Positions 5,756 through 12,620 of a stretch of DNA of 64,000 bases are shown here, in pieces. The notes under the pieces are model-generated. The model was given only the letters and a program-made list of their open reading frames with translations, was not told where the DNA came from and ran no database searches. The translations under genes and the position numbers were made by a program. Source of the DNA: Escherichia coli. Its GTDB lineage: Bacteria; Pseudomonadota; Gammaproteobacteria; Enterobacterales; Enterobacteriaceae. The stretch is taken from NCBI RefSeq assembly GCF_016903815.1, contig NZ_CP069973.1, one strand, 5' to 3'. The stretch's first letter is position 1; every line of letters starts with the position of its first letter.

Positions 5756-7162
5756 ATGCGTACGTTTAGTGGCAAACGTAGTACGCTGGCGCTGGCTATC
5801 GCCGGTGTTACAGCAATGTCGGGCTTTATGGCAATGCCGGAGGCTCGCGCCGAAGGATTTATCGACGATTCAACCTTAACCGGCGGTATCTATTACTGGC
5901 AGCGTGAACGCGACCGTAAAGATGTTACCGACGGCGACAAATACAAAACCAACCTTTCTCACTCCACCTGGAACGCCAACCTCGATTTTCAGTCTGGTTA
6001 TGCTGCTGATATGTTCGGCCTTGATATTGCTGCGTTTACGGCGATTGAAATGGCGGAAAACGGTGACAGCTCTCACCCGAACGAAATCGCGTTTTCAAAA
6101 AGCAATAAAGCCTATGACGAAGACTGGTCCGGCGACAAAAGCGGTATAAGCCTGTATAAAGCAGCGGCCAAATTTAAATACGGTCCGGTGTGGGCGAGGG
6201 CAGGTTACATTCAGCCAACTGGTCAGACGCTGTTAGCGCCGCACTGGAGCTTTATGCCGGGTACTTATCAGGGGGCGGAAGCCGGGGCGAATTTTGATTA
6301 CGGCGATGCTGGTGCGTTGAGTTTCTCCTACATGTGGACCAACGAATACAAAGCACCGTGGCATCTGGAAATGGATGAGTTTTATCAGAACGATAAAACC
6401 ACCAAAGTTGATTATCTTCACTCCATCGGTGCGAAATACGACTTCAAAAATAACTTCGTACTGGAAGCGGCATTTGGTCAGGCGGAAGGGTATATCGATC
6501 AATATTTTGCCAAAGCCAGCTACAAATTTGATATCGCCGGTAGCCCGTTAACCACCAGTTACCAGTTCTATGGTACGCGCGATAAAGTTGACGATCGCAG
6601 CGTCAACGATCTTTATGACGGCACCGCCTGGCTGCAAGCGTTGACCTTTGGTTACCGGGCGGCTGACGTAGTGGATTTGCGCCTCGAAGGCACCTGGGTT
6701 AAGGCTGACGGTCAGCAGGGATACTTCCTGCAACGTATGACTCCAACCTACGCTTCCTCCAACGGCCGCCTGGATATCTGGTGGGATAACCGTTCCGACT
6801 TCAACGCTAACGGCGAAAAAGCGGTCTTCTTCGGTGCGATGTATGACCTGAAAAACTGGAATCTTCCAGGCTTCGCCATCGGCGCTTCCTACGTTTACGC
6901 ATGGGATGCTAAACCCGCTACCTGGCAGAGCAATCCGGATGCGTACTACGACAAGAACCGGACTATTGAAGAGTCTGCATATAGCCTGGATGCGGTTTAC
7001 ACCATTCAGGACGGCCGCGCCAAAGGCACGATGTTCAAACTGCACTTCACCGAATACGACAACCACTCCGACATCCCAAGCTGGGGCGGTGGTTACGGCA
7101 ACATCTTCCAGGATGAGCGTGACGTGAAATTTATGGTAATCGCACCATTCACCATCTTCTGA
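5756..7162 (+). CDS. chiP: chitoporin (OprD-family outer membrane porin) ChiP/YbfM
   Basis: 468 aa with signal peptide and C-terminal aromatic residue typical of a beta-barrel porin; SD agagga upstream; recognised as ChiP. Confidence 0.9.
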
Positions 7163-7211
7163 TGCCCGACGCGGCAGGTTTTGTGCCTGCCGCACGTTTG
7201 AGGAATTTGCT

Positions 7212-7538
7212 ATGAAAAAACTGATTCTCATCGCCATGATGGCATCGGGGCTGGTGGCTTGTGCGCAATCAACCGCGCCACAGGAAGACAGCCGTCTGAA
7301 AGAGGCATACAGCGCCTGTATCAACACCGCACAAGGTTCGCCAGAAAAAATTGAAGCCTGCCAGAGCGTGTTAAACGTGCTGAAGAAAGAGAAACAACAT
7401 CAGCAGTTTGCCGACCAGGAAAGTGTACGCGTACTGGATTATCAGCAGTGTCTGCGCGCAACGCAAACCGGAAATGATCAGGCGGTAAAAGCCGACTGTG
7501 ATAAGGTCTGGCAGGAAATTCGCAGTAATAACAAATAA
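7212..7538 (+). CDS. chiQ: lipoprotein ChiQ/YbfN
   Basis: 108 aa with lipobox (LVAC); immediately downstream of chiP as in E. coli. Confidence 0.85.
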   Translation: MKKLILIAMMASGLVACAQSTAPQEDSRLKEAYSACINTAQGSPEKIEACQSVLNVLKKEKQHQQFADQESVRVLDYQQCLRATQTGNDQAVKADCDKVWQEIRSNNK

Positions 7539-7577
7539 GTGAGAGCTGTAACTCTCGCTTTTCTTATTTCCCGTGTA

Positions 7578-7610
7578 TAAAAAAGCCAACCCGCAGGTTG
7601 GCTTTTCTCG
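7578..7610. terminator. bidirectional Rho-independent terminator between chiQ and fur
   Basis: Hairpin agccaacccgcaggttggct flanked by an A-run and a T-run. Confidence 0.7.
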
Positions 7611-7621
7611 TTCCGGCTGGC

Positions 7622-8068
7622 TTATTTGCCTTCGTGCGCGTGCTCATCTTCGCGGCAATCGCCTTCGGCACAGTGACCGTAAAGATAGAGACTGTGGTTA
7701 GTCAGGCGAATGCCATGTTTTGCGGCAATTTCACGCTGACGCGCTTCGATGGAATCATCACTAAATTCGATTACCTTGCCGCAGTCGAGGCAGATCAGGT
7801 GATCGTGGTGATGTTGCTGTGTCAGTTCAAATACGGATTTACCGCCTTCAAAATTGTGGCGGGTGACGATACCAGCGTCGTCAAACTGGTTCAGTACGCG
7901 ATATACCGTAGCCAGACCAATTTCTTCACCCATATCGATCAGACGTTTGTATAAATCTTCCGCACTGACGTGATGGTTGTCCGGCTCCTGAAGAACTTCC
8001 AGGATTTTTAAACGAGGAAGCGTTACTTTCAGGCCAGCTTTCTTTAGGGCGGTATTGTTATCAGTCAT
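7622..8068 (-). CDS. fur: ferric uptake regulator Fur
   Basis: 148 aa MTDNNTALKKAGLKVTLPRLKILEVLQEP...; metal-binding HHDH and Cys motifs; recognised as Fur. Confidence 0.95.
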   Translation of the reverse strand: MTDNNTALKKAGLKVTLPRLKILEVLQEPDNHHVSAEDLYKRLIDMGEEIGLATVYRVLNQFDDAGIVTRHNFEGGKSVFELTQQHHHDHLICLDCGKVIEFSDDSIEARQREIAAKHGIRLTNHSLYLYGHCAEGDCREDEHAHEGK

Positions 8069-8147
8069 GCGGAATCTGTCCTGTTACTAAGCGGTTCACT
8101 TCATTAGGAGAAGTGACAGAATTTGCTCTTGAGATAATGCGTATCAT
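8061..8147 (-). CDS. uof: uof, 28-codon upstream ORF translationally coupled to fur
   Basis: Direct translation of the reverse strand gives MIRIISRANSVTSPNEVNRLVTGQIPHD, with the TGA overlapping the fur ATG (ATGACTGA). Too short for the ORF track, which shows it only as the tail of a longer reading frame. Confidence 0.75.
   Translation of the reverse strand: MIRIISRANSVTSPNEVNRLVTGQIPHD
8123..8140. promoter_or_regulatory. Fur-box-like operator (fur autoregulation)
   Basis: gataatgcgtatcattat matches about 15 of 19 positions of the Fur-box consensus GATAATGATAATCATTATC; it overlaps the uof start. Confidence 0.55.
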
Positions 8148-8325
8148 TATAGAATTGCCACGCCTAAATGAAAACCACAAGTCCCTGGCAAATATTGTTA
8201 ATAAAAACGTGGCACAGCTTACATTTACAACGGCAAGGCCACTTGAACACCGGGACATTGTACAGGTACAACAGCAAAAGTTACAAATTTGTAGCAATTA
8301 TTTTGATTGGCATTATCTATTAATA

Positions 8326-8349
8326 CGGCGTAGACATGAGTCTACGCCG
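8326..8349 (-). terminator. hairpin downstream of fldA (partial terminator before uof-fur)
   Basis: cggcgtagacatgagtctacgccg, a perfect 10 bp stem. Confidence 0.45.
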
Positions 8350-8356
8350 CATCACA

Positions 8357-8887
8357 TCAGGCATTGAGAATTTCGTCGAGATGCAACTCTTCAGAAATCT
8401 GTTTAACCCATTTTTCTACACGTTCAGCGGTCAGTTCCGGCTGACGGTCTTCGTCGATAGCCAGACCGACAAAGTGGTCGTCATCTGCCAGACCTTTTGA
8501 TGCTTCGAAATGATAGCCCGCAGTTGGCCAGTGACCAACAATGGTTGCACCGCGCGGTTCAATGATGTCGCGGATGGTGCCCAATGCGTCACAGAAGTAT
8601 TCAGCGTAATCTTCCTGGTCACCACAACCAAACAGCGCAACCAGTTTGCCATTGAAATCAATCTCTTCGAGAGTCGGAAAGAAGTCATCCCAGTCACACT
8701 GCGCTTCGCCGTAATACCAGGTTGGGATGCCCAGCAGCAGAATGTCATATGCTTCCAGATCTTCTTTGCTGCTTTTTGCAATGTCATGGACATCGGCAAC
8801 GTCTTTACCAAGCTGTTTTTGAATCATTTTTGCGATATTTTCGGTATTACCGGTGTCGCTGCCGAAAAAGATGCCAGTGATAGCCAT
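8357..8887 (-). CDS. fldA: flavodoxin 1
   Basis: 176 aa [23 protein letters not shown]... with the flavodoxin FMN-binding signature. The ORF-track entry extends upstream to 9004; I place the start at the homologous ATG. Confidence 0.95.
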
Positions 8888-9026
8888 GAGTGAAATAACC
8901 TCTTGAAACTTATTGAAATGGGGGTGGAAAATTGCCCACGGATAAAGGCAATCATAGCAGAACAGGCAGTCTTGCGGAATCAGCAAACGAGCAGGACTGC
9001 ACACTGTGCTACATGAAAGTGGAAAT

Positions 9027-9320
9027 TTAAACGATGCCCTGACTACGCAGCGCCGCCAGTTGCTGCATTAACATCTCTTCGATCAGTTCGCTACGGCTCA
9101 TATTGCGCGATTCCGCCAGCTCGTTCAGCGCCTCGACAGCTTCCGCGTTCAGCTTCAGTTCGACACGCTTAAGGCCACGTACTTTATCGCGTTTTAGCTG
9201 GTTGCGTTTATTAATACGCAGCTGTTCATCGCGCGAAAGCGGATTAGTTTTCGGTCGTCCCGGTCGACGCTCGTGCGCGAACAGATCTAATGTCGTACGG
9301 TCCGTTTGTTCTTTGGCCAT
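9027..9320 (-). CDS. ybfE: LexA-regulated protein YbfE (CopB-like)
   Basis: 97 aa [38 protein letters not shown]...; the open frame continues upstream to 9389, so the start is uncertain. Confidence 0.8.
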
Positions 9321-9459
9321 GATCTTGGTGACTTCGGGGGAAACAATCAGCCAGGCCTCTGCCCGGATGGATAGCGCGCCATAATACATCAGCGCGATGA
9401 GTCACGCCAACGCCCACGCGCGGAAAGCGACGCGGACGCTGGGTTTTTAATCAGTTGCG

Positions 9460-10224
9460 TTAATCATTGAGATAGCGACGGATAGCGCGTAATACCGCAT
9501 CCGGTTTTTCAGCATGGACCCAGTGACCCGCGCCTGCAATCACATGCGCCCGTGCCTGTGGAAATTGTGCCAGTAAATCATCGCGGTACTGCTCGCTAAC
9601 ATACGGAGAATTGCCGCCAGGGATAAACAGGGCAGGGTGATCCCATGCCGGGATTTTCTCCCAACCCACAATATGCGGATACTGATCCCACAATACCGGC
9701 ACGTTAAAGCGCCACTCCCCGTCAACAAAAGATTTCAGCAGAAACTGAATCACCCCTTCTTCATTAAGATGCTGGCGCATTATTGCCGCTGCTTGCTGGC
9801 GAGTTTGTGCGTCCGATTCACTGACTGCGTTGATGGCCGCGAAAATCTCATCATGCCGGCGAACGTGATAATCGACCGGAGCAATATCAATTGCCACCAG
9901 CTTGTCAATCCGATCGGGGGCCAGTGCAGTAAGTGCCATTACCGCTTTACCGCCCATGGAGTGACCGATAAATGTTGCTTTGTCGATCTGCAGTGCATCC
10001 AGGGTATCAACAAGATCCTGGGCCATCGCCGGGTAATTCATTACCGGATCTCTCGGTGAAAGACCGTGGTTACGCATATCAACCTGGATGATATTGTGAT
10101 CGTTTACCAGATCGCGAGCCAGTACGCCAAGGTTGTCTAGGCTACCAAACAGACCATGGACAAGAACGATGGGAGAATTATTGTGCTGGTTTTGTGCAGT
10201 TTGCGCGCGGATATTCAATTTCAT
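9460..10224 (-). CDS. ybfF: esterase YbfF (alpha/beta hydrolase)
   Basis: 254 aa; GHSMGG nucleophile-elbow motif in the translation. Confidence 0.9.
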   Translation of the reverse strand: MKLNIRAQTAQNQHNNSPIVLVHGLFGSLDNLGVLARDLVNDHNIIQVDMRNHGLSPRDPVMNYPAMAQDLVDTLDALQIDKATFIGHSMGGKAVMALTALAPDRIDKLVAIDIAPVDYHVRRHDEIFAAINAVSESDAQTRQQAAAIMRQHLNEEGVIQFLLKSFVDGEWRFNVPVLWDQYPHIVGWEKIPAWDHPALFIPGGNSPYVSEQYRDDLLAQFPQARAHVIAGAGHWVHAEKPDAVLRAIRRYLND

Positions 10225-10408
10225 GGCAAAGTTCTTTTTTTCGCGTTGTCGGGTTAGGGTATTATGTTGACCATTGTGCCACAGGGCTGCAACAAATAAG
10301 GTTTATTCCGAGTTTTTCTGCAAGCCAGGCTTGACGCTATCCGCTGCCGGGATTTATTCATATACTCCTGGCGACTTGTATTCAGCTAAGACACTGCACT
10401 GGATTAAG

Positions 10409-10954
10409 ATGAAAACGATTGAAGTTGATGATGAACTCTACAGCTATATTGCCAGCCACACTAAGCATATCGGCGAGAGCGCATCCGACATTTTACGGCG
10501 TATGTTGAAATTTTCCGCCGCATCACAGCCTGCTGCTCCGGTGACGAAAGAGGTTCGCGTTGCGTCACCTGCTATCGTCGAAGCGAAGCCGGTCAAAACG
10601 ATTAAAGACAAGGTTCGCGCAATGCGTGAACTTCTGCTTTCGGATGAATACGCAGAGCAAAAGCGAGCGGTCAATCGCTTTATGCTGCTGTTGTCTACAC
10701 TATATTCTCTTGACGCCCAGGCGTTTGCCGAAGCAACGGAATCGTTGCACGGTCGTACACGCGTTTACTTTGCGGCAGATGAACAAACGCTGCTGAAAAA
10801 TGGTAATCAGACCAAGCCGAAACATGTGCCAGGCACGCCGTATTGGGTGATCACCAACACCAACACCGGCCGTAAATGCAGCATGATCGAACACATCATG
10901 CAGTCGATGCAATTCCCGGCGGAATTGATTGAGAAGGTTTGCGGAACTATCTAA
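10409..10954 (+). CDS. seqA: replication initiation negative regulator SeqA
   Basis: 181 aa [33 protein letters not shown]...; the ORF-track entry starts upstream at 10274. Confidence 0.95.
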
Positions 10955-10979
10955 AACGTTGCAGACAAAGGACAAAGCA

Positions 10980-12620
10980 ATGGCAATCCACAATCGTGCA
11001 GGCCAACCTGCACAACAGAGTGATTTGATTAACGTCGCCCAACTGACGGCGCAATATTATGTACTGAAACCAGAAGCAGGGAATGCGGAGCACGCGGTGA
11101 AATTCGGTACTTCTGGTCACCGTGGCAGTGCAGCGCGCCACAGCTTTAACGAGCCGCACATTCTGGCGATCGCTCAGGCAATTGCTGAAGAACGTGCGAA
11201 AAACGGCATCACTGGCCCTTGCTATGTGGGTAAAGATACTCACGCTCTGTCCGAGCCTGCGTTCATTTCCGTACTGGAAGTGCTGGCAGCGAACGGCGTA
11301 GATGTTATTGTGCAGGAAAACAATGGCTTCACTCCGACGCCTGCCGTTTCCAATGCCATCCTGGTTCACAATAAAAAAGGTGGCCCGCTGGCAGACGGTA
11401 TCGTGATTACACCGTCCCATAACCCGCCGGAAGATGGTGGTATCAAGTACAATCCGCCAAATGGTGGCCCGGCTGATACCAACGTCACCAAAGTGGTGGA
11501 AGACAGGGCCAACGCACTGATGGCCGATGGCCTGAAAGGCGTGAAGCGTATCTCCCTCGACGAAGCGATGGCATCCGGTCATGTGAAAGAGCAGGATCTG
11601 GTGCAGCCGTTCGTGGAAGGGCTGGCCGATATCGTTGATATGGCGGCGATTCAGAAAGCGGGCCTGACGCTGGGCGTTGATCCGTTGGGCGGTTCCGGTA
11701 TCGAATACTGGAAGCGCATTGGCGAGTATTACAACCTCAACCTGACCATCGTTAACGATCAGGTCGATCAAACCTTCCGCTTTATGCACCTCGATAAAGA
11801 CGGTGCGATCCGTATGGACTGCTCCTCCGAGTGTGCGATGGCGGGCCTGCTGGCACTGCGTGATAAGTTCGATCTGGCGTTTGCTAACGACCCGGATTAT
11901 GACCGTCACGGTATCGTCACTCCGGCAGGTTTGATGAATCCGAACCACTACCTGGCGGTGGCGATCAACTACCTGTTCCAGCATCGTCCGCAGTGGGGCA
12001 AAGATGTTGCTGTCGGTAAAACGCTGGTTTCATCTGCGATGATCGACCGTGTGGTCAATGACTTGGGCCGTAAGCTGGTAGAAGTCCCGGTAGGTTTCAA
12101 ATGGTTTGTTGATGGTCTGTTCGACGGCAGCTTCGGCTTTGGCGGCGAAGAGAGCGCAGGGGCTTCCTTCCTGCGTTTCGACGGCACGCCGTGGTCCACC
12201 GACAAAGACGGCATCATCATGTGTCTGCTGGCGGCGGAAATCACCGCTGTCACCGGTAAGAACCCGCAGGAACACTACAACGAACTGGCAAAACGCTTTG
12301 GTGCGCCGAGCTACAACCGTTTGCAGGCAGCTGCGACTTCCGCACAAAAAGCGGCGTTGTCTAAGCTGTCTCCGGAAATGGTGAGCGCCAGCACCCTGGC
12401 AGGTGACCCGATCACCGCGCGCCTGACTGCGGCACCGGGCAATGGTGCTTCTATCGGCGGTCTGAAAGTGATGACTGACAACGGCTGGTTCGCCGCGCGT
12501 CCGTCAGGCACGGAAGACGCGTACAAGATTTATTGCGAAAGCTTCCTCGGTGAAGAGCATCGCAAGCAGATCGAGAAAGAAGCGGTTGAGATTGTTAGCG
12601 AAGTTCTGAAAAACGCGTAA
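10980..12620 (+). CDS. pgm: phosphoglucomutase
   Basis: 546 aa [12 protein letters not shown]...; active-site TSGHR (TPSHNP family) motifs; seqA-pgm arrangement as in E. coli. Confidence 0.95.

Follow-up and report, generated by a model that had tools for sequence, protein, structure and literature searches.

How a short upstream open reading frame (ORF) controls translation of the gene behind it, and at which level a regulator acts when its binding site lies over the start codon of that ORF, are questions raised by the leader of fur in Escherichia coli, where translation of fur is coupled to that of the small ORF uof according to the literature and reviews. The DNA analyzed here is a 64-kb stretch of an E. 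coli genome (the window), in which an original prediction had placed such a leader, and all features lie on the minus strand unless stated otherwise. The anatomy of the leader, its identity to K-12, the matches to the family model and to the Fur box, the RyhB complementarity and the retention of the ORF were computed here, and the coupling, the repression by RyhB, the dependence on MiaB and the transcription start sites come from the literature, with the published start sites and the RyhB pairing model taken from secondary sources.

The fur coding sequence occupies 7622..8068 (148 aa plus stop in the ORF list) and is identified by the NCBIfam model NF006999 (309 bits) and by the RefSeq annotation of a K-12 stretch that is 99.8% identical. 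In front of it, an ATG-initiated ORF at 8147..8061, read from the sequence and present in the ORF list, comprises 28 codons plus a TGA and runs into fur. Its peptide, MIRIISRANSVTSPNEVNRLVTGQIPHD, matches the NCBIfam model NF011344, "fur leader peptide," over the full length (1-28) and above its curated cut-off of 71, at 81.3 bits (E = 3e-23). No Shine-Dalgarno-like sequence could be read directly 5' of the uof ATG. With a 471-nt query over the region, 5,424 of 5,426 complete E. coli genomes gave a match (95-100% identity), and beneath that match RefSeq annotates uof (as "fur leader peptide"), fur and fldA, again in 5,424/5,426 genomes. The gene order in K-12 is ybfF-ybfE-fldA-uof-fur, with chiQ and chiP next on the other strand, and EcoCyc includes uof in its leader peptides (PMC7815308). 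The region 8061..8147 is therefore taken, with a probability of roughly 0.93, to be the E. coli uof-fur leader, a system already described and one that is intact in this strain; as such, the leader found here is known and ordinary. In the gap between chiQ and fur, at 7531..7612, there is a sub-threshold Rfam match to STnc370 (28.9 bits vs. a gathering score of 54), which overlaps terminator-like hairpins on both strands at 7537-7560.

The leader had been called fully conserved, and this is very nearly the case. In the alignment with the K-12 leader, 320 of 321 bases are identical and there are no gaps, the uof frame has neither a frameshift nor an internal stop, and its overlap with fur is kept. 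The only difference is a T to C substitution at 8108 (U to C in the mRNA), which turns uof codon 14, TCT (Ser) in K-12, into CCT (Pro). In all other respects the locus is that of K-12 (fldA-uof-fur-chiQ), with the same length, start, stop and 8-nt overlap, and the Fur box, the UCA codon 6 and the stretch complementary to RyhB are shared as well. The exact 87-nt uof allele of the window is found in 393 of the 5,424 E. coli genomes, making it a minority allele, and the remaining 5,031 genomes are 95-99% identical to it, nearly all of the sampled rows being one base apart. Codon 14 is polymorphic more widely, encoding Ser in K-12 and E. albertii, Pro in the window, Phe in one other locus of the comparison set (L003) and Val in most Citrobacter, which fits its position in the loop of a hairpin discussed below.

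The stop and start codons at the junction are arranged somewhat differently from what had been proposed, namely a uof TGA overlapping the fur ATG. The 28-codon ORF does overlap fur, by the 8 nt ATGACTGA at 8061..8068, but its TGA (8063..8061) is separated by 2 nt from the fur ATG upstream of it (8068..8066), with which it shares no base, the junction reading CCG CAT GAC TGA in the uof frame and ATG ACT GAT in the fur frame. The arrangement resembles classical ATGA-type translational coupling in that the first ORF ends at the start site of the second, and differs from it in that the uof stop is located 2 nt past the fur ATG within an 8-nt overlap, whereas in an ATGA overlap the stop codon itself shares bases with the downstream ATG. 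The sequence ATGACTGA is found in 77 of 80 Enterobacterales loci that were chosen for comparison because they encode Fur with 90-100% identity; counts of leaders below refer to 81 sequences.

Just upstream of this junction is the Shine-Dalgarno sequence of fur, AGGA at 8079..8082 (read from the sequence; -14..-11 relative to the fur ATG), the GG of which is predicted to be paired, with a probability of being unpaired of at most 0.1 in three transcript models. These predictions lead us to infer that coupling would consist of the unmasking of a paired fur ribosome-binding site by a ribosome that terminates at +5. A specific masking helix proposed by RNAalifold, between -15..-4 and +27..+39, gained no support from covariation, given that 84.2% of its cells are paired compared to 83.6% in shuffled alignments and that a compensatory change occurs at only one pair, in two distinct sequences. 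Covariation is uninformative for this helix because its columns are almost invariant; the sequence AACAGGAC is nearly unchanged among the 81 sequences.

The Fur box is the second element for which the map had to be redrawn. A scan of the whole 64-kb window with the 19-bp consensus GATAATGATAATCATTATC, allowing up to three mismatches, returned a sole match, TATAATGATACGCATTATC at 8133..8151, which agrees with the consensus at 16 of 19 positions, and 100 shuffles returned none. This box spans the uof ATG (8147..8145). A Fur box over the uof start had been predicted at 8123-8140, and although the true box does cover the ATG, that position is off by 10 bases, such that only 8 nt of the Fur box fall within it and the ATG does not. 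The box opens with the hexamer TATAAT (8151..8146), which is also the -10 element of a sigma-70-like promoter match, TTTTCA-17-TATAAT at 8146..8174 (10/12 in a consensus scan), whose start site would be expected about 7 nt downstream, near 8137-8140, that is, inside uof and past its ATG. The box spans the start codon because TATAATG is promoter, operator and start codon together. This agrees in outline with the literature, where the uof start site is located upstream of the ORF and two fur start sites (a and b) are located within it (PMC7867234), the Fur box overlaps the -10 element of Pfur-a (PMC7867234; De Lorenzo et al., 1988, as cited there), and the Pfur promoter lies within uof (PMC6191717). 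The operator of De Lorenzo et al. (1988, via PMC7867234) is the same 19-bp Fur-box match over the -10 element upstream of fur, and at the fur promoter the window is no different from K-12.

Farther upstream, a promoter-like site, TTGTAA-18-TACAAT at 8257..8286 (9/12 in a consensus scan), is a candidate promoter of the long uof-fur transcript. Farther still, at 8321..8354 and just past the fldA stop at 8357, there is a perfect 15-bp hairpin (-25.4 kcal/mol, z -8.1) followed by a weak U tract, which from its predicted fold is probably a leaky fldA terminator or a stabilizer. A leaky terminator would fit the reported read-through from fldA into fur.

It had been further proposed that RyhB and Fur autoregulation both act on fur translation through this arrangement. 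Taken literally, the box over the uof start would then be an operator by which Fur controls the translation of its own gene, and the box does physically span the uof ATG. Such a role is hardly credible, however, in that Fur represses by binding to DNA, the box falls on a -10 hexamer, its role in the literature is the repression of Pfur-a, a promoter with transcripts that begin past the uof ATG (PMC7867234), and binding of Fur to RNA is not described in the literature reviewed. Because the box is the -10 hexamer of the fur promoter, Fur autoregulation is transcriptional, and because the start sites are downstream of the uof ATG, what Fur represses is the transcription of an mRNA that does not contain that ATG. 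Hence the Fur box is a transcriptional operator that acts on DNA and is not a translational operator. The proposal stands for RyhB, from the literature and from complementarity, and falls for Fur; according to the literature, only RyhB and the decoding of a UCA codon act on the translation of fur.

The complementarity to RyhB was computed with a RyhB sequence that is present at 99% identity or more in 5,358 genomes (of 5,424 checked). The best duplex between the leader (-104..-45) and RyhB nt 37-80 pairs mRNA positions -97..-46 (8165..8114) with RyhB nt 37-77 at a predicted -24.4 kcal/mol, compared to -13.6 +/- 3.6 kcal/mol for shuffles, of which 5 in 500 were as good. It is made up of four blocks, in which GGC.UGGC pairs with RyhB nt 70-76, UAAUGAUAC, which contains the uof AUG, with nt 60-69, GAGCAA with nt 42-47, including G44 and C45, and UGUC with nt 38-41. 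G44 and C45 thus have partners in the predicted duplex, which extends into the uof initiation region, and the mRNA stretch involved (8114..8165) is identical to that of K-12 in the alignment. Only this extended duplex, which includes RyhB nt 60-77, stands out from shuffles. Duplexes with a short seed (RyhB nt 31-62) did not surpass shuffles either in E. coli or in 18 other genera, their several sites ranging from -12 to -14 kcal/mol, and a fold of full-length RyhB with the leader, which gave a meaningless 118-nt duplex that was also no better than shuffles, was discarded. The published model of RyhB-fur pairing is described as not predictable and as reaching into the terminator stem of RyhB (PMC3018821), and the null result with seed-only duplexes fits that remark. 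The extended duplex agrees with the literature on three points, which are the requirement for RyhB G44/C45 in the repression of uof and fur (PMC6191717), the reported block of uof initiation by RyhB, and the overlap with the terminator stem.

The second translational input in the literature is at codon 6 of uof, a UCA serine codon that is present in the sequence at 8130..8132 and that is reported to require a MiaB-modified tRNA-Ser (PMC7466049; PMC11448259). Escherichia and most Citrobacter retain TCA at this codon, and Enterobacter, Kosakonia and Phytobacter have CCA.

These elements can be combined with the published account into a working model of the leader. Long transcripts, arising upstream of uof or by read-through from fldA, would carry the uof start codon, and ribosomes on them would translate the 28 uof codons and finish at the TGA, which is located 2 nt beyond the fur AUG. 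In the published account, this translation of uof is what would permit efficient initiation at fur, which is the translational coupling. RyhB, which is produced when Fur is inactive, would pair over the uof start region and block uof initiation, leading to less synthesis of Fur, and the UCA codon 6 would tie the decoding of uof to the iron-sulfur enzyme MiaB. At the level of transcription, Fur-Fe at the -10 element of the second promoter would repress the short fur mRNA, that is, the transcripts that begin inside uof. The heptamer TATAATG would serve in this scheme as -10 element, operator core and uof start codon at once.

The leader ORF was also compared across the Enterobacterales. The heptamer TATAATG is retained in 73 of the 81 sequences. 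The ORF that starts from it ends as uof does, at a TGA at +5 after 28-30 codons, in 37 sequences, and in 24 it stops 18-76 nt before fur. Among the others, seven, including Mangrovibacter and Cedecea, have a leader ORF in another frame whose stop forms a true ATGA overlap with the fur start codon, and in four, from Buttiauxella and relatives, the TATAATG ATG is in frame with fur with no stop between them (about -69..+3), so that the two are fused and long transcripts could encode Fur with 22-23 extra N-terminal residues. In one Enterobacter (Enterobacter asburiae, L044:1422-1571), the fur Thr2 codon is ACA and not ACT, which removes the uof TGA and results in a leader ORF of 49 codons that ends 68 nt inside fur.

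Among those that no longer have the uof frame are Salmonella, Citrobacter sedlakii, Klebsiella oxytoca and Raoultella, and in Salmonella and Klebsiella the ORF from TATAATG ends short of the fur start. In Salmonella, C. sedlakii and a further two loci, the frame is broken by a 1-nt deletion in a hairpin loop, and nothing else is visibly changed. In Salmonella arizonae (L026:1423-1473), the leader ORF has 16 codons, MIRIILSAISATSLMK, and its TGA is located in the 3' arm of the hairpin, 30 nt before fur, and the same 16-codon ORF is found in five assemblies with an identical 150-aa Fur. In both cases the 1-nt loop deletion leads to the 16-codon ORF and thereby to the absence of a uof-fur overlap.

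Such losses raise the question of whether uof is simply a by-product, with its ATG fixed by the core of the -10 element and Fur box, its 3' end fixed by the fur ribosome-binding site, and the frame between them open by chance. The heptamer is kept whether or not a uof frame survives, the uof peptide is poorly conserved, its middle being variable, except for the 13 C-terminal residues, where it overlaps the conserved fur ribosome-binding region, the loop deletion kills the frame with nothing else changed, and there is no Shine-Dalgarno sequence before the uof ATG. The pattern of stop codons points the other way. Among 55 distinct Enterobacteriaceae leaders, the frame of the ATG is open to the fur ATG in 43, compared to 1 and 22 for the other two frames, and stops are depleted in the ATG frame, with a mean of 0.38 per leader vs. 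3.0 and 1.04. The upstream ORF also reaches the fur start despite altered spacing, by an ATGA overlap in Mangrovibacter and Cedecea and by fusion in Buttiauxella, and published fusion, toeprint and mutational work, summarized in several reviews, argues for a functional uof. A chance origin of the frame is therefore considered improbable. The comparison suggests instead selection for an upstream ORF that reaches the fur start, although the lineages are not independent.

The loop in which the frame-breaking deletion occurs, and in which the K-12 difference is found, belongs to a hairpin inside uof, UCACUUC-uccuaau-GAAGUGA, at 8096..8116 (uof codons 11-18, -48..-28 from the fur ATG). It has a predicted energy of -8.5 kcal/mol (z -4.35), which is the same with the K-12 allele because 8108 is the second base of the loop. 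Folds of the whole leader are no more stable than shuffles (z 0.26 and -0.39). In a simple hairpin search, the best local hairpin is near the same position in most loci, with stems that differ, such as ACUUCC/GGAAGU, UUGCUCC/GGAGCGA, CGCUCA/UGAGCG and GCCC/GGGC. Plain MAFFT alignments were of no use for this element, since the variable hairpin loops are misplaced in them and RNAalifold accordingly found nothing, and a covariance model was needed. The model was built from 14 sequences and matched 81 of 81 sources. Covariation was scored on 68 distinct sequences, in an alignment fitted to the model, which favors the structure, and a control with slid partners was clear: 86.6% of cells are paired, compared to 77.1% in shuffles, none of which was as high in 500, and to 29-46% when the partners are slid. 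Compensatory changes are found in 7 of 8 hairpin pairs (3/500 shuffles), with 44 compensatory cells vs. 14 expected. On this comparative evidence, the uof hairpin is supported by covariation across the Enterobacterales, including genera in which the uof frame is broken.

No Rfam family was found over the leader, and two sub-threshold matches were found elsewhere in 6000-11000. It is possible, if rather doubtful at present, that the hairpin is an independent, uncatalogued (no Rfam match) cis-acting element of the fur leader, in which case the conserved unit would be an upstream ORF starting at the -10/Fur-box ATG together with the hairpin, rather than uof as such. If this were true, the hairpin could tune the dependence of fur initiation on upstream translation or could be a platform for RyhB or Hfq. 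In several genera the 3' arm of the hairpin (GGAAG...) is complementary to RyhB nt 53-59. In four loci (L012, L036, L041 and L052), the 3' arm and the sequence that follows it (-47..-15) are complementary to RyhB nt 41-62, with a predicted duplex in Cedecea of -20.0 kcal/mol vs. -12.3 +/- 2.8 kcal/mol for shuffles, and RyhB may target a different part of the fur leader in these genera.

The uof-fur leader of K-12 is reportedly the subject of Vecerek, Moll and Blasi (2007, EMBO J 26:965). Two other systems, PhrS-uof-pqsR of Pseudomonas aeruginosa and GcvB-thrL, also involve a small RNA that acts on a short upstream ORF coupled to the main gene, but PhrS activates whereas RyhB represses, and there is no sequence relationship with uof-fur. 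The leader in the window has little value as a discovery, in that uof-fur is a textbook case of how a small RNA exerts control by way of a leader ORF and receives its annotation automatically in E. coli genomes, and the Ser14Pro change in this strain is a harmless minority allele. What the analysis does provide is a corrected map, in terms of the position of the Fur box, the geometry of the stop and start codons and the level at which Fur acts. The arrangement is also less universal than the term "conserved architecture" implies, given that the leader ORF of Salmonella stops 30 nt before fur, and the covarying hairpin provides a small lead for work on the translation of fur.
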